Source: Eledone cirrhosa (Eukaryota). From it: 64,000 nucleotides of DNA. A model generated the notes under the pieces. The model was given only the letters and a program-made list of their open reading frames with translations, did not search any database and was not told where the DNA came from. The translations under genes and the position numbers were made by a program. The stretch lies in NCBI GenBank assembly GCA_964016885.1, contig OZ024741.1:257548001-257612000 (forward strand). Reading direction: 5' to 3'. This document shows, piece by piece, positions 628-52,616 of the stretch. Numbering within the stretch: position 1 is the first letter of the stretch; the number at the start of each line of letters is the position of its first letter.

Positions 628-1842
628 TTTGTTGCTCCATGGCTACGTCAATGTTAAATGGATGGTAACATTTGAAACATTGAAGGCAAAGACCTTGTTG
701 GTCTATCATTTATTATTTATCTGGTCCTTATAATTCGGGAGTAAAATGCCTTCAATAGAATGTTAAAATAAGAATCTGGTTCAGAGCTTTGTTTGCGAGC
801 CCTGGTCTATTTATAACTGATGGAAGAGAGGAGAGGATGACAGTGTATGTGAATTATCACGAATATAATGTTGTGTGTGTCAGCAAGTTTCTGTCAAATA
901 TTGTGTCTTGATGGTTTCATGTCAAATCTTTTAATGTCAAATGTTGTGTATTGAGTGGTAATCACTTGGATATATCAACTATTCTCGATTGAGTTACGTA
1001 TTCGGGTTATGTGTGCCTGGGTGGTTATGTCAAAATTTAAAGGTGTGTAAGTATAGTGTACTGTGTTATAATTTAATGTTGTTTTCTTGGTTAACTTTAG
1101 CTACGTGTAGTGATTCTTTGAATCTACGGTTGATTCTACTCCCTGGCTCTAGTAATAACTGTTATGTTTTGTTAATGTTTTTGCATTTGTCTATGTAGAG
1201 ATTTCATAGGCATACTATTTAATGCAGCACTATAAATTTTCCAGCATATGTATAAATATATTTAACATTGCAAGCATCGTAGTTTGCTCCTCCTAACATC
1301 AGAGATGTTGTTATAAAATTTAAGGACAAAATCTCAATTTATATACACCCCAACACCTTCCAACTCCCCTCTCAATCAATTAACTTGCTTTTACCATTCA
1401 CTATTTTCTTTCACCTCTTGTGTATATATATGCTTTAATCCTTTCAAATCTTCATCAACACTCCTTCACTCCCACTGTCATTAACAACTCCCCCATCCAG
1501 ACACACCAAAATCTCTTATATAGACAACACAGCCTCAGATCATCATCATCATCATCTTCATTTAACGTCCATCTTCCACGCTAGCATGGGCAGTTTGACA
1601 ATTGCCACCGATGAATGCAAGAAAGTTAACCAGGAAAGTTAACCAGGAATCTTTCAAAAATCTCCCCACCGAAGTTAATAAAGAGCTTACTAGATCTACA
1701 AAATCAAATTGTAAAATTATAATATAAAATTAAATTGTTTTGAACTACAAGTGAAGTTATTCTTTTCCTTTTTTAAAATATACCTAACTGTACCAAGGAT
1801 TTCACACATTTTCCAATATTCTACCACTTTGTACAAGACAGA

Positions 1843-4560
1843 ATGGTTAACACTCGTTCAAAATCTGTTACTGAATCCCTCAAACCGGAGACAATATTAC
1901 AGGAAATCTCCGAAAAACTCTCCATAATAATAAGTAAGTACGATTTTCTTACCAATGCCGTACAACAAATGGCACAACAAACAGACAGCAGCTATAGGGA
2001 AAAACTTGATTCCCTAATTGCAGACCACCAGAAACAAGCACAAATCTTCCCCTCTGAAACACGACCAGAATTCCATTGTTCATAATGCGTTCAAAGAATG
2101 GAATGAACTGGATCTGGAAAAAGAAGCTTTAAAAAAAGAAACCAAATGAAACATATTTGGACCCAATTACTAAGTGAAAGAAAACAGGCATAATGGAAAG
2201 CCTTGAGGAGTGAAAACCTAGCGGACACATACGAGATATGGCAAAATAAGGAATAAGACATCCTCCCGAGAAAAATCTCCAGAAACTTGAGACTGTAATC
2301 CCCGTTCTCCGTCTAAGAGGGCCAGAATTCAAAGAAATATTTGAAAAATGTGACACCATCATTCAAGAAGAAATAAACAAAAGAAGCAGCGGCAATGTGC
2401 GTGAAAAGCTCTTTGACCTATGGAAGACTGATACAACCAAAGAGGAATTGAAATCAAAGAAAATCTCGAAGTCAAGAATACAATGGCTATAAGAATATGA
2501 AAAGAACTATGGGAAAGACCAAATGAAATCCAGAAAACAAGCACATAAGAAACCCTCTAAGTCGGGAAAATTCAAAAACACAAAAAATGAAGAATTCTCA
2601 CGCAATAAACAAACGCAATAAACAAACACCATCGGAGAATCCCAAATACACAATTATACAAAGACCAAATACTAAACCCCAGAACCAGATACAACTACTG
2701 TCAAAACCCCAAGAACAATTACAAGAGGCAAAAATCAAAGACATATGAAGACCGAATGGGACAACAGAAGAACCAGACCCCCATATATCAACCAGCAAAC
2801 AAGATTCTACCATTCCGAACGAAATGCCAGTATCAACATGAAATGCCAGTGAACAGAATATTTCAGCACAACAGAAACACCACTATCTCAAATGAGAATT
2901 ATTTTTTTAAGACAAGGCGCCTCCCACCAAATGAAGGAAACAAGAAAATACACCACCCTTCAAGTGGCACTTGACGAGAAAAAACCCAAAGGAACCAAAA
3001 ATAATCAACACATTGGCCAAGAAATTAACACAACACGAAATAAAACTTTTTAGAAAGCAGATCAAGCCGACCTTATAAAAGACACAGAAGATTATTGTCG
3101 AAAATTACGTCTAGGAGAATTCTTCCTGGAGGAACCACTAGCGAAAAACAAAAAAAGAACTTCAAACCCCCGTTAAATAGAGACAAACACCTGGAAGAAT
3201 ATATAACCTGCCTTTGACAATCGGTGCAGTCAAATATTGAAGAGACGTAACACAAACGCAACATTCCTACAGACCCACTGCTAGCACTAAACAAGCTACA
3301 AAAAGACTTCTCAACAATCATAAAAGAAGCTGACAAAGGTGGAGCAATTGTCATCATGGACAAAAACCACTACAAGGATATGGTCCTAGAACAGTTGAAA
3401 GACGAGGGTTTTTACAGGAAAGTCAGCAAAAGTGAAGGAAGAAAATCGATAATTCAAGTAGGTAAACTCACGACAAAGTACCAAAATAAGCTCTAAATGA
3501 AATCAATTACTTAACCAACTTCGAAATGAAAACCAGCAATTTTTATGGATTGCCGAAAGTTCACAAATCCAGAGAAATCCAAAACAACAGAAAATGCAAA
3601 AATACATCATACGTCAACGTACCATGATCGACAGATTTAAAATTACGCCCAATTGTTCCTGGTCCAGCCTCAAACACACAACGTCTAAGCAACCTATTTG
3701 ACATCATACTGAAACCCTTATATAAAAAAGTGCCAAGCTTCATCAGAGATGATATGGAATTCCTGAACTATATCCCCCAGAAAGTACACCAAGAAACAAT
3801 CTTAGTCAGCTTTGACATAACAAGCTTATATACTAACATCCCACACGGCTTAGGAATTGAAGAATATCTGGTGACCTCATCAATACGGCCATCTCCAAGG
3901 CCCAGAACATCCCAGTGACAACACTGAGAAAAACAAACCAACAAAATAGAAGGGAAAAAACAGTTATCCCTTTTGTCGTCACTCACAACACAAGGAACTT
4001 CAACATTGTGAAAGCCGCTAAACAATATCTCCCGATTCTCCAGCAGTCCCCCAAAATTAATGCACTCATAAAAGACTTACAAATAATATATAGTAGACGC
4101 CAAACATCCAACCTAAACAAATTGAGTATCAAGGTGAAATTTGCATCTGACAATGAAACAATGCAAGTTAAGAAATATGGGGACCCTTGATGTGGAACTT
4201 GTGAATACATTGAAGAAGGTGGGAAAATCTTTAAAAACAATGAGATTTTCAAAGTTAATGTGAGCATGAATTACAAAACAAAAAACTTAATGTATTGTGC
4301 AGCCTGCCCACAATGTAAAGAATACTACATTGGCGAAACAGGAACGGGTTTACATGACAGAGTTCGTGTCCATAAACAACAAATTAGAGACCCCTCTGTC
4401 AGAAACACCACATGCAGTGAACACTTCGCATCATGCGGAAAGGGAAACTTCTCTAAGATATGGTCAGACAACGATCATTTCAAGAAATATAAAGAAGAAT
4501 TATTCATTAGAAGGTACAAACTGCTACTGAACACACAAAATGATATTCCATCTTCCAACA
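1843..4560 (+). mobile_element. Degenerate Penelope-like retroelement (N-terminus, partial RT, GIY-YIG endonuclease)
   Basis: Interrupted frames encode IIKEADKGGAIVIMDK, FYGLPKVHK, LRPIV, SFDITSLYTNIPH, IPFVVTHN and CPQCKEYYIGETGTGLHDRVRVH...EHF. There are many stops and frameshifts, and the RT core is deleted near 3870. Confidence 0.85.
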
Positions 4561-12487: not shown

Positions 12488-12622
12488 TTTGTTGACAGTC
12501 GTCCTCCTGATAACCTGCAGCACATCCATTTGGACATCTTCCATTTGTTTTATCACAGTTTTCGTTCCTGGCACAATTACAACGTTTCCTGCAATTGTTA
12601 CCAAATGTTCCTTGACCGCATT
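12488..12622 (-). CDS. EGF-like (laminin-type) exon of a MEGF10/11- or SCARF-like gene
   Basis: 135 nt, ttttcAG acceptor and GTaatt donor, phase 1/1. Encodes ECGQGTFGNNCRKRCNCARNENCDKTNGRCPNGCAAGYQEDDCQQ (8 Cys). Confidence 0.85.
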
Positions 12623-13799
12623 CTGAAAATATCATTATAGAAAAAAAAAAAATTCATACATCATTATATATATATATATATATATATATCACAGTCACTC
12701 CTCTCTCTCTTTATATAATCACACATACAATCTCCCTTTCTCGCTCTAGCAATCTTATAAAATCAAAGATAAGCAACATAAACACACGCACACACACATA
12801 AGCGTGTTGAAAAAATCCAAATCGCTTCATCTTTCTCTTTCACACTCTCTCTCTATATATACAGTATAGATATAACGGAAGTATTGAAATTTGAATTTTT
12901 CAAAAGAAGTGAATCTTGAACTATGTAATTATATTTTTAATATATGTTTAATCATGTGTTACGAAATTTAGTAGATAAATGATGTAATATTCATTAATTA
13001 TTTATTCAAAGTAATCAAACTTATTTTACAAACGGGATAAAAAATTATATTCTGGATGCAGTGCCGCACTCCTTTCTTTATCATAGTTAAGATATCATAT
13101 ATTATATATATATATCATATATTATGTATATATCACACACACACACATATATATATATACACGAATATATACAAACATATTTACTAGTGGGGTCTATCAA
13201 GACACCTCAGTAAAATAATCAATGAATAAAAGTCTAGAAAATATATTTTCATATAGATGAGTTTGGAACTAATTATCATTAAACTATTATATCCTAGAAT
13301 ATCAAGGAAATATAACGTAATTAATAGATACAGCGAAGAAAATATATCATATACAACAGATAATTGTTTCTACTTTTGGCACAAGGCCAGCAATTATCCC
13401 AGTGCATTACTTTATTTTATTGACCCTGTAAGTATAAAAGGCAAAGTTAACCTCGGCGGGATTTGAACATGTTGCAAAGCATAGTGTCTGACGCTCTACC
13501 GATACTGCCAATATAATGTAGAGTTAACAGGAATGTAATGTTGATATAACTATATGTTCTGAATGATAAACTTCGTTTTGTTAAGAATAGAGTTCAACGT
13601 AATATAGAATAGATATTTCATAATGAGCGACAAAAAGAAAATCTCATATTTTTCAATGTAAATATTGAATAGTATTAGAAAGGATGTTGATCTTTAGTTG
13701 TTGTCAGAGCAATGCTGCGAATAGAAAATTAATATGAAATCTTATACATATTTTCTTCAAGATAAATATATATTTTATACATTCTAGAGATATAAATAC

Positions 13800-13934
13800 C
13801 TTGTTGACAGTCGTACTCCTGATAACCTGCAGCACATTCATTTGGACATCTTCCATTTGTTTTATCACAGTTTTCGTTCCTGGCACAATGACAACGTTTC
13901 CCGCAATTGTTACCAAATGTTCCTTGACCGCATT
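13800..13934 (-). CDS. EGF-like exon of the same gene
   Basis: 135 nt, AG/GT, phase 1/1. Encodes ECGQGTFGNNCGKRCHCARNENCDKTNGRCPNECAAGYQEYDCQQ. Confidence 0.85.
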
Positions 13935-14083
13935 CTGAAAATATCATTATAGAAAAAAAAATAATTCATACATCATTATATATATATATCACAGTCACTC
14001 CTCTCTCTCTTTATATAATCACACATACAATCTCCCTTTCTCGCTCTAGCAATCTTATCAAATCAAAGATCAACAACATAAAC

Positions 14084-15359: not shown

Positions 15360-15494
15360 CTTGTTGACAGTCGTCCCCCTGATAACCTGCAGCACATCCA
15401 TTTGGACATCTTCCATTTGTTTTATCACAGTTTTCGTTCTTTGCACAATGACAAAGTTTAGTGCAATTTTTACCAAATGTTCCTTGACGACATT
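15360..15494 (-). CDS. EGF-like exon of the same gene
   Basis: 135 nt, AG/GT. Encodes ECRQGTFGKNCTKLCHCAKNENCDKTNGRCPNGCAAGYQGDDCQQ. Confidence 0.85.
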
Positions 15495-15590
15495 CTGAAA
15501 ATATCATTATAGAAAAAAACTAATTCATACATCATTATATATATACATTTAATGTTATCACCGAGATAGTTTACACACACACACTCACAG

Positions 15591-15669
<79 letters not shown>

Positions 15670-15716
15670 TATGTATACTTGTATATGTATGTATGTATAT
15701 ATATATATATATATAT

Positions 15717-16166
15717 ATAAGTACGTATACGTACATACATATATGTATACAGACGTACAGTAGTATGTATATATATATACATACATGCACACATATATAT
15801 ATGTTCGTATGGATTCACCGAACATTTATTATAATGCTCGGTGTGTTTGTAAACAAATATCCCGAATTAAGCCGTACAGTGTCTAGCAAGCATCGTTGTT
15901 CATTTGTTCAGCACTGACAAAGTATAGCTAATAAGCTTGAAACTAGTACAGCGTTCCTTTGTCAGTGTTGAACAAATGAGCAACGATGGTTGCTAGACAC
16001 TGAACGGCTTAATTCGGGTTGTTTGTTTACAAACACACCGAGCATTATAATAAATGTTCGGTGAATCCATACGTACATATATATATATGTGTGCATGCAT
16101 GTATATATATATATACATACTACTGTACGTCTGTATACATATATGTATGTACGTATACATACTTAT
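15717..16166. repeat. Long fold-back palindrome (arms about 205 bp, spacer about 34 bp)
   Basis: 15717-15922 is the near-perfect reverse complement of 15957-16166. Duplicated at 24492-24945. Confidence 0.9.
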
Positions 16167-16396
16167 ATTTAAGTAACAGCCGTACTAAGCGTGGGAAATG
16201 ATATGTAGTATGTATATATATAATAAATGTGTCTCAATGTTTGTATAGTTGTGTATTTCGGAATATCTCTCAATATTATTTTACGGTTGAATGTTTAGAG
16301 AATATATTTGGATATAGATCAGTGTAAATCTAATTCCCATTAGCCAAGTTATAATATTTACTGAAACATTATGGAATAAAATGTATTGATAATAAC

Positions 16397-16525
16397 CTTC
16401 CTCACAGTTGAATCCGGAGTAGCCGCTATCACAGCTACCTGGACATGATCCATTAATGTGGTTACATTCTTCAGTACAATAACAGTGCCGTTTACAGCCA
16501 AGACCAAACTGACGATTATAACATT
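16397..16525 (-). CDS. Divergent EGF-like exon of the same gene (not in the ORF track)
   Basis: 129 nt, atttcAG acceptor and GTtatt donor, phase 1/1. Encodes ECYNRQFGLGCKRHCYCTEECNHINGSCPGSCDSGYSGFNCEE (8 Cys). Confidence 0.85.
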
Positions 16526-16903
16526 CTGAAATATAAATGGTTTCATGTGAATTGTAGCCACACTAAGATAATGATAATATTTAGATTGTAAGATATGCCT
16601 CACTATATTACTGGTATTTGTTTTATAAACTCTAGAAGCAGGATAAAACTGTTTGTATCCCACATGATATAATATATCAGCAGAGGACTGTGGAATGATA
16701 GGATTGACTGGTATGAAAGCTCAACGTCATTACAATTAATGTGATGTAATAATTCTTGTAAAACAAATTAGGTAACATACGTAATATGCATAAAATCATG
16801 AAAGACCAATGGAAGAAACAAACGATATAATCAGAACAACATATAAACCATTTCTTTCCTTCTTATGTGAGTTATGTTCATCAACATTGAACGACTATAA
16901 CTC

Positions 16904-23349: not shown

Positions 23350-23810
23350 AATAACTGTTTCTACTTTAGGCACAAGGCCAGCAATTACCCAGTGCATTAC
23401 TGGTACTTTATTTTATCGACCCCGTAAGGATGAAAGGCAAAGTCAATCTCGGCGGGATTTGAACTCAGATCGTTTTAATAACGGTTTATTATATAGGCAC
23501 AAGGCCAGTAATTTGGGGGGAGGGGAAAGTCGATTAAATCGACCCCAGTGCGTGACTGGTACTTTATTTTATCGACCCCATAAGGATGAAAGGCAAAGTT
23601 AACCTCGGCGGGATTTGAGCTCAGATCATAAAGAGTCGTAACTCTATGCTGCAAAGCATGGTGTCTGACGCTCTACCGATACTGCCAATATAATTGTTTC
23701 TACTTTTGGCACAAGGCAAGCAATTATTCTAGGGTATTACTGGTACTTTATTTTATCAACCCCATAAGGATGAAAGGCAAAGGTAACCTTAGTGGGATTT
23801 GAACTCAGAG
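23350..23810 (-). mobile_element. Three tandem or nested SINE family 1 copies
   Basis: Repeated ggcacaaggc...tttattttatc.accc..taaggatgaaaggcaaag...gggatttga.ctcag units. Confidence 0.8.
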
Positions 23811-24109
23811 TTAACAGGAATGTAATGTTGATATAATATATGTTCTGAATGTTAAACCTTATTTTGTTAAGAATAGAGTTCTATATAATATAGAATAGAT
23901 ATTTCCTAACGAGAGATCATAAGAAAATCTCATATTTTTCAATGTAAAGATTGAATAGTATTAGAAACTGTGGTGATGTTTAGTTGTTGTCAGAGCAATG
24001 CTGCTAATAAAGAAATATATAGTTACATCTCTAGAAAATTAATATGAAATCTTATACATATTTTGTTCAACATAAATATATATTTTATACATTCTAGAGA
24101 TATAAATAC

Positions 24110-24244
24110 CTTGTTGACAGTAGTACCCGTAATATCCTGCAGCACATCCATTTGGACATCTTCCATTTGTTTTATCACAGTTTTCGTTCTTTGCACAATG
24201 ACAAAGTTTAGTGCAATTTTTACCAAATGTTCCTTGACGACATT
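24110..24244 (-). CDS. EGF-like exon of the same gene
   Basis: 135 nt, AG/GT. Encodes ECRQGTFGKNCTKLCHCAKNENCDKTNGRCPNGCAAGYYGYYCQQ. Confidence 0.85.
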
Positions 24245-24340
24245 CTGAAAATATCATTATAGAAAAAAACTAATTCATACATCATTATATATATACATTT
24301 AATGTTATCACCGAGATAGTTTACACACACTCACTCACAG

Positions 24341-24452: not shown

Positions 24453-24491
<39 letters not shown>

Positions 24492-24495
<4 letters not shown>

Positions 24496-24945
24496 TACGT
24501 ATACGTACATACATATATGTATACAGACGTACAGTAGTATGTATATATATATACATACATGCACACATATATATATGTACGTATGGATTCACCGAACATT
24601 TATTATAATGCTCGGTGTGTTTGTAAACAAACATCCCGAATTAAGCCGTACAGTGTCTAGCAAGCATCGTTGTTCATTTGTTCAGCACTGACAAAGGATA
24701 GCTAATAAGCTTGAAACTAGTACAGCGTTCCTTTGTCAGTGTTGAACAAATGAGCAACGATGGTTGCTAGACACTGTACGGCTTAATTCGGGTTGTTTTA
24801 TTTACAAACACACCGAGCATTATAATAAATGTTCGGTGAATCCATACGTACATATATATATATATGTGTGCATGCATGTATATATATATATATACATACT
24901 ACTGTACGTCTGTATACATATATGTATGTACGTATACATACTTAT
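24492..24945. repeat. Second copy of the long fold-back palindrome
   Basis: Same arms and spacer as 15717-16166. Confidence 0.9.
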
Positions 24946-25213
24946 ATTTAAGTAACAGCCGTACTAAGCGTGGGAAATGAAATTTCGTTTCATTTTTTCC
25001 GTTTATATATATATATAAAGCATCAGTCATACAAAAGTGAGTTACAAACGAAACGAAATTTAATTTCGTTTCGTTATTTGTTTTTATCGTCTCCGTTGAA
25101 CCGGTACGTACTCACGCTCTATGCAAATTAGTCTGCCCACTACTAATTTTCATAGAAAAAGCATATAACGATATGTGCTTTTACGATTCTCTAGAAAGGC
25201 CGGAAGATAGGTA

Positions 25214-25258
25214 AATATTGCTGATGAGTTGTAACAACAACGAAACTAGTTCAATATT
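25214..25258 (+). ncRNA. Minimal type I hammerhead ribozyme
   Basis: AAUAUUG-CUGAUGA-GUUGU-aaca-ACAAC-GAAA-CUAG-UU|CAAUAUU: 7-bp stem I, 5-bp stem II, palindromic stem III ACUAGU and an intact core. Confidence 0.9.
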
Positions 25259-25534
25259 CCTTGTCTGGCTTTCTGGAGAATAGAGGAAAGGTGTTTCCTC
25301 AAAAACCAGTATGACTCTAAAAACCGGTTTGTCTGTGTGTTTGCATACAGAATAGCTGGACACTCACAGTAAAGTTACCAGTGAAAAACTCGGTACATCT
25401 ACATATGTATACGTGTGTGTATTCATATGCATACTAGTATTTCAGTATACATATGTGGATGTACATTTTTAACTTAATTGTTTAAGCGTCAGTCATACAA
25501 AAGTGAGTTACTCTCTGTCTTGCCTGTTCCCCCT

Positions 25535-25790
25535 ACATGCCGCCCTCAATGACATATTGAGAAGAAGTCCTATCTTTCCATTTCAACTGCAGTCAGCAGG
25601 CTTAGACCGCAGAGATGGTAAATGCCTCAGCAGTATCACCCTCTTCCCATTCGAAGGAGGTAGATCCCTCATGTGGGGCGCCCGATGCTGTTACACGCTC
25701 TCCTCCTCCAACTTAGTTGCTTTGGCCACAAAACATGGTATTGCTACCCGCCTTGCCGAAGAACGTAAAATAAACAAATACTGGGGTTTG
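25535..25790 (+). mobile_element. CRE-clade-like non-LTR retrotransposon RLE fragment
   Basis: HAALNDILRRS...AGLDRRDGK....ITLFPFEGGRSLMW.A.C..TL...AEERKINKY resembles the CRE endonuclease (RPDG decayed). Confidence 0.65.
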
Positions 25791-26167
25791 TCCGGCTCTT
25801 CCTCTTCCCACCGAACGCTGTCAAGATCTCAGGCGAACGTGGATCCCGCACTGCCGAGCTCCTCCGCATGATCGGAACGTTGGTGGCCCGTCTGAGGCTG
25901 GCTACCCCGTGAGGTTGGTTGGCTGTTGCAGCGAGTGTCACTCGCCATGCTTTTGCTGTATTATCCATTGGGCACAACATTTCTATCCCCTTGACCTAGG
26001 CCCAAAGACCATTCGCCCAACCCCTTCACCCCTCTCCTCTCTTCTGCAACAGCAGAACTCTTTCCCTCCCCTTCTGTCCTTTTTCTTATTTCTATTTTTC
26101 TTTTTTCTCTATATTTCCCTATTCTTACTTTCCCTTTATTTCTTTCTTTTATTATTTTATTAGGTTT

Positions 26168-26352
26168 GTGGTTTGGCAGTATCGGTAGAGGGTCGGACGC
26201 CATGCTTTCCAGCATAGTTACGTCCCTTTACGATCTGAGTTCAAATCCTGCCGAGGTTGAATTTGCATTTCATCCTTAAGGGGTCGATAAAATAAAGTAC
26301 CAGTAATGCACTGGTAATTGCTGGCCTTGTGCCTAAAGTAGAAACAATTATT
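26168..26352 (+). mobile_element. SINE family 1, full length
   Basis: A box tggcagtatcgg, B box gagttcaaatcc and tail ...gtagaaacaattatt. Confidence 0.85.
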
Positions 26353-26369
26353 TTATTATGTTTGTCACT

Positions 26370-27586
26370 ATTATTATTGTTATTGTTCTTTGAGTCTCAG
26401 TCATTGATATTAGTTAACTGGAAAGTTTGTTGAAATGAATATCAAGCCACTACCTGCAGCCTCAGATATTCAGGACGTATCGGAGGGTTCTTGCTGTTCC
26501 CAGCAAGCATGCCTTTTGAAGCGTTCCAAAAAGCGTGAAGGGGCCAATTTTCTTTAACCTCCCTGGAAACTCTTTGAGATAGTACCTAGTGCGCCTATGA
26601 CAATCGGGACCACTTTAAGTCCTGGTATCGGTTAATTTTCTCCCTCTCCTTCTCTTGCACTCTCGTGTCGAATGGGCAGGCCACATCCACAATCAGGCAC
26701 GATCGTTTTTCTTTGTCCAAAACCACCAGGTCAGGTCTATTGTGTTCCAGTTTCTTGACCGTCTGTATCCTAAAATCCCACAGCAACTTCACCTGATCGT
26801 TTTCTATCACCGACTCTGGCTTATGCTCATACCACTTCTCAGAATGTGGTAAATTGTTTACTTTGCATAGGTGCCAGTGGACCACCCTTCCCATCACATC
26901 ATGTCTCCAGCCCTTATAGTGAGTCTGGGCTAGGTGTTTACACTCGGATACAATGTGAGCCACAGTCTCCTCTCTCTCTCTACAGATCCTGCACAGTGAG
27001 CTAGCCACCTCCTTGTAAATATGGTGTTTCAACCACTTCGTTTTGAGGGCCTGCTCTTGCGCAGCCATTAACATTCCTTCTGTAGGCTTTTTAAGGTCTT
27101 CTCTTTTCAACCAGTTTTCATGTCTGTGAATCTCTGAATTCAGTTTTCTCAAAGAAGGTACTATGAAGGGATTTTTCATGAAGGCCGCTCTTTCTCCTTG
27201 TTGTTATTTTCTTCTTGGACATCCCTTGGTCTATTGCCCTCTCCTTCAGTACAGTTCTGAGCATTGGCTCCTTACTATCAGTCACGTATTTGTGTAGGTT
27301 GCTTTTCTCCATCTGAACACAGTCCTCTATGCTGATAAGACCTCTTCCACCCTCAGATCTCCTTAAGTAGAGTCTATCGACATCACTCCTCTTGTGGAAC
27401 ATGTTGTAGATAGTCAATAGCTTCCTAGTCTTCCTATCCATTTCTTTTTGTTCAGCAACATTCCATCTCAGAATTCCCGCACTGTACCTAATAATAGACA
27501 CAGCTCGAGAATTTACTGCACTTATGGCATTCCTACTGTTCAGATGTGACTTTAATACGCTCCTTACTCTCCGAATGTATTCAGAT
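26370..27586 (-). mobile_element. R4/Dong-like family A, diverged subfamily, truncated pseudo-copy
   Basis: C-terminal thumb, CCHC and RLE, with a frameshift near 27118 and a deletion near 26612. Same 3' UTR type; (TAT)n on both sides. Confidence 0.9.
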
Positions 27587-27593
27587 CTTATCA

Positions 27594-27625
<32 letters not shown>

Positions 27626-27627
27626 AG

Positions 27628-30600
27628 TTGCATTTATCTTGCTTTATGTTCATACGAGTTATCACCAAGTCACAACCAGTGACCTCAAGAGACAACAAGG
27701 TCCGCCATGTTCAAGAAAGAACATACATACTCACACATGCATCTTTAGTGTTTAGACTTGTGATGTACTTATATTGACAGAATCTTCCTTAGTATATGAG
27801 CAGTTCCCATTAGTACTATCTTTTGTATTTCTCCTATACGCGGGTTTCCTGGGATTTGCGATAAGTTATCATTAGACCCCTTAGGTATCATTCCCAGAGC
27901 GCCTACAACCACTGGTATTGTTTTAGTTCTCAATTTCCACATTTTTCCAATTTCTATCTCCAGGTCCTTATACTTGCTCAATTTTTTAAATGTTTTTATA
28001 GATACATTCTTGTCTATTGGAACAGACATATCAATTAGCAGGCATACCCTCTTTTTAAAGTCCTTCAATATTATATCAGGTCTATTTGCATCTATTTTTC
28101 GGTCTGTTTGGATGCTAAAGTTCCACAAGATTGAGATGGGAGGTGGTTGATGCTCTCACCAATTCTTTTGATGGGGCAGGTCAAAATGCTTACACATTAT
28201 CCAATGTATGTATTGTGCAGCTCTGTCATGCCTGTTTAGGTATTCGGTTGGAGCTATAGGACTGCACATTGAAATTATATGGTCAATGGTCTCTGGTTGT
28301 TTTTTGCATACACGGCATAATGGGCTGCATCCATTTTTTATTATGTTGGCTTGGTAATTTTTTGTTGGCAGACACTGATCTTGTGCTGATATAATCAGTC
28401 CTTCAGTCTCCGATTTCAGTCCAGAGAATGCCAACCACTGATGGGTTAAAGTTTTGTCAACATCAGGATTGTTAGCTCGCTCTGGGTATTTTCCATACAG
28501 AGGCTTTTCTTGCCATTTCTTAGCCAGTTTCTGTAGCAGTTCTTTCTTTGCAGTTACTTTTACCTGCTTTGCTTTTTCTGTGTTTTCCATTTCAGCAGTA
28601 AATGGGACTTCTGAAATTTGTAGTCCATTACTGTATCTTTGTGCATCTTTTGTAATGGAATATGATCTTTTGATGCTTTCGTGTTTCAAAACGAGTTTGA
28701 TCATGCAATCATGTGATTCCCTTAGATATGTAGATAATCCAATTGTTGCAGTTTTCAACGCAATGTCTAACTGGATTAACCCACGTCCTCCTTCTTTCCT
28801 AGGGAGATATATTCTATCTATATCTGCATGGTTAAGAATTTTCGAATTTTTGTATCGAGCCTACGGATCTCTGTGCTTGACCAGTTGATGACATTGTAAC
28901 TGTAGGTTACTACTGGTATGGCAAGCGTGTTTATGGCATCGATCCTATTCCTTGCATTCAATTCCGTTCTTTAGATTGCCCTTACTCTGCGGTAACATTC
29001 CTTCCTTATCCTTTCCCTCATTGTCGAGTGCTTGATTCCGTCTCCTTCACAAACACCTAGATATTTGTAAGTTTTTTCTTGATTAAGTTCTCTTATCACG
29101 TTCCCCCGGTCAAGATTAATGTCTGAACTCTTCAGCAGCCTGCCTCTGGTGAACGTTGCTTTGGCGAATTTATCTAGTCCAAACTCCATTTTAATGTCAT
29201 CACTGAACTGCTCCACAGTGGATAATAGCCCTTGCAATTGTTCATCATTTTTTGCAAATAGTTTCAGGTCATCCATGTAGAACAAGTGATTAATGGTTTT
29301 GTCATAGACTTTATATCCATGTTTTGTTTCATTGAGCATTTTACTTAATGGTATAAGTGCGATGCAGAATAAAAGCGGTGATAAAGAGTCACCCTGAAAA
29401 ATTCCACAATTAATATTAACTTCTCCAGCTTCCAGTGATTTTGTTTCACTATTCAAAAGGGGTGTCATTTTCCATGTCTTCATACTGAATGACAAAAACC
29501 TCCTGACAACGGGGGATATTTTGAAAATCTCTAAACATTTTTCAATCCAACTGTGTGGCAAACTATCGAATACTTTTTTATAATCTATCCAAGCAATCGA
29601 TAGATTTTTGTGTCTATTATGACAATCTTCCAGTATCATTTTGTTAACCTGAAGCTGATCCTTACAGCCATATGAGCCTCGTTTACACCCTTTCTGCTCA
29701 ATGGGAAATAGGTCATTTGTTATCAGGTGGTCATATGTGTATTCAGTTAGGACTGATGTTAAAATTTTATACATTGAGGTCAAGCAAGTTATCGGTCTGT
29801 AACTTTTGGGATTGTTTGTCTCATCATTCTTCGGAAGCAGGAATGTAATACCGTTAACTAGCCATGATGGTATCTTTTCTGGCTCCTTAACTATTTCATT
29901 GTAAAGTTGGGCTAACAGCTCATGAGACTCTGTGAAGGCATTTATCCAAAAGTTTTGTATTTTGTCTTTTCCTGGGGATTTCCATTTGCTGGTTTTTCTT
30001 AGAGCCAAGCGCAACTGTTCAACTGTTATATTTTCCCATATTTGTTCCTCAAGGTGAGCTGTATCTTTCATTTGTCTGTCTATCCATGGGGCATGTATGT
30101 TATGAACTTTTTCTTCGGCCCAGATCTTTTACCAGAATTCTTGCACTTCCTCCTTCGGTGGTATTGATTTAGCAGTTATTGTTGACTTACTAATTTTTCT
30201 GTAGAAGTTTCTTTGGTTGTTTTTGAACATATTATTGTCCTTATAGAATCTAGATCGTTTTTCAAAGCGCCTTATACGAGCAGCTTTGGCCGACACTTTT
30301 TGCTTGATTATTTCTATCAGCATGTCTATGTCACTTGTTGATTTTATACTGTACTTTTTTTTCAATTTTCTAAGTTTAGTTTGTTTAACATGTTCACCTA
30401 CTTTATAGTTTGTTAAAATTTCTATGTCAGATCGGAGAAGGTTTATTTGGCGATTGATGTTCTCTTGCCAAGTAGATTTCTTGTGGAAATTCCTTTGTTT
30501 TTTCATCTTCACTCCACATAAGTGAGTGGTGACTTTAGCCGATGCATAATAGAGATGATTTAAATCAGTAATGTTTAGTTTGTTTGTGATGATAATGTTT

Positions 30601-52329: not shown

Positions 52330-52464
52330 CTTGTTGACAGTCGTTCCCGTGATATCCTGCAGGACATCCATGTGGACATTTTCCATCTTTTGTATCACAG
52401 TTTTCGTTCCTGGCACAATTACAATGTTTTGTGCAATGTTTGCCAAATCTTCCTTGACCGCATT
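52330..52464 (-). CDS. EGF-like exon of the same gene (most 5' exon seen)
   Basis: 135 nt, AG/GT. Encodes ECGQGRFGKHCTKHCNCARNENCDTKDGKCPHGCPAGYHGNDCQQ. Confidence 0.85.
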
Positions 52465-52616
52465 CTGAAAATATAATTATAGAAAAAAAATAATTCATAC
52501 ATCATTAATTATATACATTTATTGTTATCACTGAAAGACAAAGATGACGATTTAAAAGTATATATATATATACAATGATATTAAATAAATAGAAACTATA
52601 TTTATAAAACCATATT

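Follow-up and report, generated by a model that had tools for sequence, protein, structure and literature searches.

The Retrozyme Locus and Its Surroundings

The window considered here, by which we mean the whole 64-kb stretch of DNA that was analysed, carries at positions 25018 to 25511 of its plus strand a short copy of a non-coding repeat that we refer to as family 1. As delimited by its internal repeats, by similarity search and by a paralogue elsewhere in the genome, the copy comprises 1.06 units of a monomer with a period of 466 bp, unit position 1 falling at window position 25018. The initial annotation had placed the unit start at 24980 and had described 28-bp terminal direct repeats. 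The repeats are real (25018-25045 and 25484-25511, 96% identical, at a spacing of 466), but their terminal role is not: a 99%-identical paralogue 4.2 Mb away (L039) has the same junctions and flanks around 2.06 units, so the plus-strand sequence at 25484-25511 is the first 28 bp of a next unit, the overhang of a cut tandem array and not a terminus. Other copies terminate at unit position 70 or at 462-467, rather than at the 28-bp repeat. The start at 24980 had to be given up altogether, since 24980-25006 is the tailed end of an insertion of a sister family and 25007-25017 is a (TA)n target tract common to the two neighbouring insertions. The left end of the window copy adjoins this (TA)n, and the copy begins right after it, at the point where the tailless arms of other insertions end (466/1); descriptor and sequence scans of the window found no family-1 sequence to the left of 25018. 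Its right end is non-canonical, being cut at unit position 28 and fused to another repeat.

The neighbouring insertion (24486-25006) belongs to the sister family, family 2, and has two arms, a tailless one running leftwards and a tailed one running rightwards. Its hammerhead, of which stem II and GAAACTAGT lie at 24699-24721, is severed by the inversion junction, and the centre of this upstream palindrome, a candidate variant hammerhead, proved to be that severed ribozyme. The same family-2 two-arm insertion is present twice in the window, at 24486-25006 and 15712-16204, through a local duplication.

Several parts can be distinguished within the family-1 unit, all on the plus strand. Unit positions 1-70 (25018-25087) form a "tail" segment, position 70 being the tailed terminus in other insertions, and a long hairpin lies inside it at 25047-25075. 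A small hairpin, CTTAA-TTGT-TTAAG, occupies 25473-25486; other insertions have their tailless terminus within it, at 25479-25484 (unit positions 462-467). Between these, at 25120-25154, lies an inverted pair, TATGCAAATTAGT / ACTAATTTTCATA, which contains ATGCAAAT and is kept in the sister family; inverted ATGCAAAT / ATGAAAAT occur there in both families with the same C-T mismatch. We take ATGCAAAT to be an octamer motif, and the pair is a possible internal promoter or RNA hairpin. The unit is non-coding, as first annotated: its six-frame translation yields short stop-free stretches only, and units in other arrays vary from 462 to 470 nt with no reading frame kept. It is AT-rich, the 2-kb bin around it having 36% GC (low GC being taken as <45%), and it has neither coding nor LTR features; its ends and targets are not LTR-like either.

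The surrounding sequence is crowded with other features. Six EGF-like cysteine-rich exon repeats lie on the minus strand (12489-12623, 13801-13935, 15361-15498, 16398-16529, 24111-24248 and 52331-52468), presumably parts of a MEGF-type host gene. The hammerhead described below is antisense to these exons and therefore would not cut that pre-mRNA. Nested minus-strand fragments of restriction-like-endonuclease LINEs, which we assume to be R2/R4-like, lie at 25512-28500, to the right of the cut unit end. A dispersed SINE-like short repeat is present in several copies (23388-23811, 26216-26314), the SINE-like repeats of the window seeming octopod in type, and a decayed Neptune-type Penelope-like element (PLE) with a nested LINE fragment lies at about 1777-4543 on the plus strand, about 80% identical to the family of the coding element L082.

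The Hammerhead Ribozyme and Selection on the Fold

A descriptor search located a hammerhead core at 25214-25258 on the plus strand. Stem I (AATATTG/CAATATT, 7 bp) leads into CTGATGA, stem II (GTTGT/ACAAC, 5 bp, with an AACA loop) leads into GAAA, and stem III is the palindrome ACTAGT. The intact CUGAUGA/GAAA core, 7-bp stem I, 5-bp stem II and ACUAGU stem III of the initial annotation are thus all present, and cleavage is predicted between 25251 and 25252, after unit position 234. This was the sole descriptor match on either strand of the 64-kb window; 100 Markov-resampled windows contained no match of equal quality, and a scan of the window at Rfam gathering thresholds returned none. The ribozyme is less "minimal" than first described, because stem I continues beyond a conserved 2-nt TA bulge. 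Together with this extension, cofolding and covariation support a type I hammerhead spanning 25205-25265. Two copies cofold at -17.0 kcal/mol, as against -6.8 for a single copy, and the ACTAGT stem III is predicted to pair between the two.

Variation among genomic copies bears on whether the ribozyme is maintained. Across 39 loci and 181 full units, 6 of the 45 hammerhead sites vary between loci, compared with 146 of 421 elsewhere (P 0.004, which is optimistic because related loci were treated as independent), and no catalytic core site varies between the 39 loci. The six variable sites are the two of a compensatory stem II pair (24 T-A, 15 A-T), a loop base, the cleavage base (T/C) and two distal stem I bases. 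Within arrays, the hammerhead has 14 private changes where 16.9 are expected, and the constraint therefore acts on the lineages that spread. A comparison of 35 distinct sequences, drawn from each of the three hammerhead types, shows covariation in stems I and II; the TA bulge is present in 31 of them and AAYA at loop 2 in all 35, both being candidate elements of the helix I-II tertiary contact known from canonical type I hammerheads. This set includes the slightly variant cores of the L032 type.

The monomer taken from cleavage site to cleavage site folds as a branched circle that joins the two cleavage ends, with a predicted energy of -157 kcal/mol against -93 +/- 7 for 60 shuffles (z -9.6). 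The minus strand has a strong fold as well (z -7.2), so palindromes at the DNA level add to this score. An 88%-identical family member (z -10.2) and two family-2 units with 58% alignment identity (z -7.3 and -8.2) show the same branching, while four control stretches gave z between -0.2 and -2.5. When tallied on the structure derived from the window copy, 33 of 65 changes between loci preserve the predicted pairing, only 2 of these being two-sided, compared with 16 of 86 private ones within arrays (P 4e-5, optimistic for the same reason as above). These patterns of substitution, with compensatory change in both the hammerhead and the fold, show the two to be under selection, and the fold and the selection on it would suit a circular RNA.

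Family Size and Tandem Arrays

In the 3.0-Gb genome, an exact pattern for the family-1 hammerhead core counts 9,305 occurrences (control 0), and a looser pattern that takes in sister families counts 23,748 (control 12); much of the roughly 14,000-core difference probably comes from family 2 and variants. Exact tailed ends adjoining ATATA number 2,307 by the same kind of search (control 0). The tailless-end pattern has 627 forward matches and 1,268 reverse matches, the latter with some sites counted several times. With more than 20,000 hammerhead cores, the two families make up a large repeat class of this genome.

Searching the same genome at the DNA level gave 156 matches from 40 scored of 90 candidates, many of them spaced at 466-468 bp. 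Tandem copies, which the initial annotation had suggested looking for, are indeed present: family-1 arrays are head-to-tail and run from one to 30+ units with a period of 466-470 bp, and array units carry the type I hammerhead, a strict regular expression missing it at 2 of 29 loci (L032 and L052). Apparent periods of about 2.8 kb, considered as possible ORF-bearing elements, turned out to be six-unit steps of pure arrays. Long arrays in one direction occur at L032 (C1:95665500-95675499) and L033 (C602); the former has a higher-order repeat of 6 and 12 units, and the retrozyme has therefore become satellite DNA there.

Anatomy of the Insertions

Family-1 insertions consist of two head-to-head arms inside (AT)n tracts, and the tailed arm ends about 70 nt further along the unit than the tailless arm in 28 of 28 complete insertions from two samples combined. 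In the first sample, 29 loci from the similarity search gave 22 two-arm insertions; apart from one with an arm cut at 214, which was left out, all 21 end at 69-70 and 462-467, both in AT repeats. In the second, 17 loci taken in chromosomal order, the rule is obeyed in 7 of 7 complete two-arm insertions, the truncated L139 and the odd L130b (ends at 393 and 462, target (CAT)n) being left out. A positional test on C1 from 0 to 121 Mb, a range that includes the chromosomal-order sample, used 100 tailed and 56 tailless ends and considered pairs within 15 kb: 33 of 35 divergent pairs were mixed, against 46% expected (P about 1e-9). The sole tailed-tailed pair represents two insertions (L272), and the tailless-tailless pair is a four-arm insertion (L269). 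Departures from the rule are L130b, L269, which is tailless at both ends, L270, a plain insertion further along the contig that is likewise tailless at both ends, and L268, with ends at 70 and 50.

Many seemingly single arms are accompanied by a second one of about 9-15 nt that has the opposite end type, as read from the flanks of L134, L142, L145, L271, L273, L274, L275, L281 and L282. Arm starts are scattered, and the junctions between arms show short overlaps or repeated filler. Fold-back self-copying is not favoured as the source of the second arm, because, as judged by eye, either arm can be the longer and both starts are scattered. The sister family has an identical insertion form, including the insertion at 24486-25006 beside the window copy. 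This two-arm anatomy with one tailed and one tailless end, absent from the initial annotation, is what connects the family with the machinery of PLEs. The tailless end falls in the small hairpin and the tailed end just after the long one, which recalls the stem-loop start sites described for PLEs (Frangieh 2024, PMC11167929).

The near-strict coupling of tailed and tailless ends says that two primers, if such generate the arms, do not choose their sites independently. In the in vitro PLE system, the published account gives no strand difference in start site in bulk (Frangieh 2024, PMC11167929). A counted end rule of this kind was not found in the literature searched, and the coupling constrains how inverted PLE insertions form, a question listed as open by Craig (2021, PMC8557442).

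The Link to Penelope-Like Elements

Among 10,597 GIY-YIG candidates in the genome, 150 were scored, and long ORFs carry a reverse transcriptase (RT) domain, a CX2-5CxxC linker and, at their C-terminal end, a GIY-YIG domain (translations of L080, L082, L083 and L086). We take the candidate partners to be of the Neptune rather than the Nematis type. Pfam confirms RT and GIY-YIG in four proteins, and the order of RT, linker and GIY-YIG is the Neptune/Nematis layout (Craig 2021, PMC8557442). The five two-arm insertions of coding PLEs with readable ends (L093, L082, L092, L312 and L261) are all tailed-tailless; their tails are about 38-47 nt, and their hammerheads are unlike that of family 1. The (AT)n-bounded, mirror-image ends of family 1 match those of the genome's PLEs, and the unit is therefore likely to be a parasitic RNA that uses PLE enzymes. 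The 3' regions of L080, L086, L093 and L098 contain PLE hammerhead variants with palindromic stem III (ACCGGT, AGTACT), some of which carry C3U and G8A.

A more direct connection comes from a chimera (L278/L289). Here a single insertion bounded by (AT)n consists of 2.7 units of family 1 as the tailed arm, a 39-nt sense piece of the unit and the 3' 2.4 kb of a PLE, which runs to the tailless end of that PLE family; to the left, the upstream part of the PLE is absent. The PLE family concerned has 2,392 candidates, and its youth is indicated by the best 40 of them, which are 96-100% identical (query locus included). L132 looks like a second such chimera, with another PLE family taking part and the far end disrupted; either it or L278 could be a deletion product. 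Retrozyme and PLE insertions also occur in shared or neighbouring AT tracts at L301, L298, L261, L058, L048 and L090. Such shared tracts are consistent with a single targeting preference, and L301 is possibly another fusion of family 2 with a PLE, or else a deletion.

Template and Alternatives

If PLE enzymes copied the unit, the nature of the template can be approached through the arrays. Three of them are uniform across both arms (15 of 15 units in L034, 14 of 14 in L035 and 5 of 5 in L037), and with L032 excluded from the means, units differ by 2.4 on average within arrays and by 21 between them. Moreover, 20 two-arm insertions are each marked by a distinct set of fixed differences, 4-50 relative to the window copy, common to every unit and to the two arms, a sign of a frequent bottleneck of one monomer. 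The cleavage site itself leaves no mark: no indels pile up at 233-235 among 181 units, and none of 26 arm starts falls at 230-240, single cases being known at 236-237 (L049 and L275). The site is thus no barrier to copying, which fits a circle or an uncleaved multimer and not cleaved linear monomers. Among contigs derived from five sequencing runs, the kind of run being unrecorded, X5 includes a closed cycle of 496 nt, which a tandem array would give likewise, and X1 repeats the two (AT)n junctions; we take neither as a sign of expression. On the arrays and their differences, we lean towards a circular monomer as the template for at least some insertions.

A linear, multimeric, uncleaved transcript copied by the same PLE enzymes is the rival that fares best, although we think it unlikely to account for the family. 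It would have the hammerhead serve some other step, such as forming the transcript end or stabilising the RNA, and would ascribe uniformity to unequal crossover or gene conversion. Its appeal lies in the mosaic arrays (L031, L033, L046, L136-137 and L141), above all L031, where the tailless arm repeats units 3-5 of the tailed arm in order: both arms copy one ordered, heterogeneous run, and a shared order of unlike units cannot come from a single monomer circle. Gain or loss of units at the DNA level does occur, as the paralogues of the window locus differ in unit number (1.06 vs 2.06), and the six-unit higher-order repeat of L032 points the same way. In vitro, moreover, hammerhead mutants insert normally and the anole PLE does not need its hammerhead, according to the published assay (Frangieh 2024, PMC11167929). 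What a linear template leaves unexplained is that each insertion has its own fixed differences, that three arrays are perfectly uniform, and that a fold joining the cleavage ends is under selection. Considering both sets of observations, the monomer-circle and multimer routes probably both operate.

The initial annotation had left a choice between slightly more than one monomer of a small retroelement and a solo pLTR. The head-to-tail arrays fit the former, and the solo pLTR is not favoured. In its wider form, the pLTR reading would make the unit the ordinary pLTR of an unsampled autonomous PLE and the arrays its repeated 5'-truncated ends, which we consider improbable. To its credit, every structural mark of family 1 is a PLE mark, the PLEs examined are a small fraction of those in the genome, and pLTR homology is reported for 24 of 57 Xenopus retrozyme families, with PLEs making up 21 of 22 matched elements (Li 2026, 10.64898/2026.07.22.740005). 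It is weakened by arrays of up to 30+ exact units without an ORF and by the different hammerheads and 38-47-nt tails of coding PLEs. At all 30 loci picked for an odd tail continuation, what follows the tail is again unit sequence or AT-rich flank. The genomic copies do not regularly abut a PLE ORF: PLE protein matches were present at 4 of 79, 3 of 92, 2 of 30 and 2 of 20 loci examined, the 79- and 92-locus sets overlapping and including sister-family loci. Five such loci read base by base (L048, L058, L132, L153 and L278) have no ORF running sense into the unit and show shared AT tracts or head-to-head fusions; L183, L255, L262 and L273 lay outside this reading. An ORF with RT and GIY-YIG flanked by the unit was not found in the loci sampled, and among 40 GIY-YIG loci none had a pLTR homologous to the unit, the matches being of low complexity or to separate neighbouring insertions. 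Searches through variant hammerhead cores and odd tail continuations likewise gave no coding parent, 30 variant-core loci lying outside the ORF screen.

A repeat arising at the DNA level, either a MITE-like foldback or a TA-targeting satellite in which the hammerhead is incidental, would account for inverted outer ends in TA repeats and for strong hairpins on both strands, but can be set aside as highly improbable: the two ends are offset by a constant 70 nt, no two insertions share a centre, the arms break off at scattered points, and between loci the hammerhead has compensatory change and an unaltered core.

Proposed Mechanism and Implications

We therefore return to a PLE-mobilised retrozyme as the preferred reading. 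The window copy is in all likelihood a truncated non-LTR retrozyme, probably copied by a Neptune-type PLE into (AT)n, and mobilisation of family 1 as a whole by PLEs seems, on the form of its insertions, very probable. In the mechanism that we propose, arrays would be transcribed into multimers, in which neighbouring hammerheads would pair through ACUAGU and cleave after position 234, and the monomers would close into the branched circle. A PLE protein, likely a dimer, would nick both strands of an (AT)n tract with its GIY-YIG endonuclease. In this two-ended form of target-primed reverse transcription, one nick would prime synthesis from the tailed site (70) and the other from the tailless site (462-467); the cDNAs would extend for 0.03 to 30 units each, and the loose ends would be joined by microhomology or short filler to give head-to-head arms.

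For animal retrozymes, mobilisation by PLEs via circular RNA is a proposal of 2020, for which co-occurrence and pLTR similarity provided support in 2026. The present analysis adds evidence at the level of individual insertions: thousands of non-coding insertions have paired ends of the PLE type, a chimera points to a candidate partner, and there are uniform arrays of the kind expected from a circular template. More tentatively, the family may constitute an animal genomic record of rolling-circle reverse transcription on a small circular RNA, in which a dimeric PLE enzyme would use two start sites, tailed and tailless, one per strand, would circle round a hammerhead-made RNA to lay down as many as dozens of identical units either way, and would occasionally take along two unlike RNAs, from which chimeras would form; this goes beyond the firmer claims above and we put it forward as a possibility somewhat short of even. 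If true, it would explain both the spread of animal retrozymes and the inversion of PLEs with a one-sided tail. In practical terms, the PLE assay already established in vitro would find a ready substrate in this 466-nt RNA, for which two start sites are mapped.

Comparison with Known Systems

The literature searched, which consisted of main texts, contains neither this family nor a cephalopod report nor a retrozyme-PLE chimera, though supplements and the repeat libraries Repbase and Dfam may list it. The closest relatives by organisation are the animal non-LTR retrozymes (Cervera 2020, PMC7229834; Li 2026, 10.64898/2026.07.22.740005), which, as described in the text of those papers, share with family 1 non-coding tandem units that each contain a type I hammerhead, a low GC content, sizes from dimers up to large multimers, co-occurrence with PLEs and a predicted circle that leaves the hammerhead free. 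The 466-nt monomer slightly exceeds the range of 150-450 bp given in 2020 (PMC7229834) and falls within that of 51-972 bp given in 2026. Insertion ends, head-to-head arms, (AT)n targets and retrozyme-PLE chimeras were not found in the searched text of either paper.

With respect to the ribozyme itself, the min-HHR, with its short helix I and long helix II, is described as having a similarly palindromic, unstable helix III and a predicted activity as a dimer only. The family-1 hammerhead, with an intact core including G10.1-C11.1, a 7-bp helix I with a bulged extension and a 5-bp helix II, is closer to the canonical metazoan type I. Among putatively non-autonomous elements, the MRC1-type PLEs of Chlamys are reported to be multicopy, head-to-tail and moved by PLEs (Craig 2021, PMC8557442), all of which recalls family 1; as a rule they resemble their autonomous partner at the 3' end, whereas no such match was found for family 1.

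The likeness in insertion form is to endonuclease-bearing PLEs, for which published descriptions give head-to-head arms, scattered 5' truncation, a one-sided tail, microsatellite or AT-rich targets and an upstream hammerhead (Arkhipova 2013, PMC3846280; PMC8557442; PMC11167929). In that literature, the tail is often at one end only, 5' copies are inverted and insertion is biased towards (TA)n (Craig 2021, PMC8557442), and in vitro the tail is set by two sites of RT initiation, each of the two target strands is cut and extended, and the enzyme is predicted to be a dimer (Frangieh 2024, PMC11167929). Family 1 differs from those elements in having no ORF, a tail of about 70-74 nt instead of 30-40, a hammerhead located 228 nt from one end and 302 nt from the other, arrays of up to 30+ exact units and no sequence match to the pLTRs sampled. 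Family 1 is a non-LTR retrozyme by the genomic definition of that class, and it works like a non-autonomous PLE.
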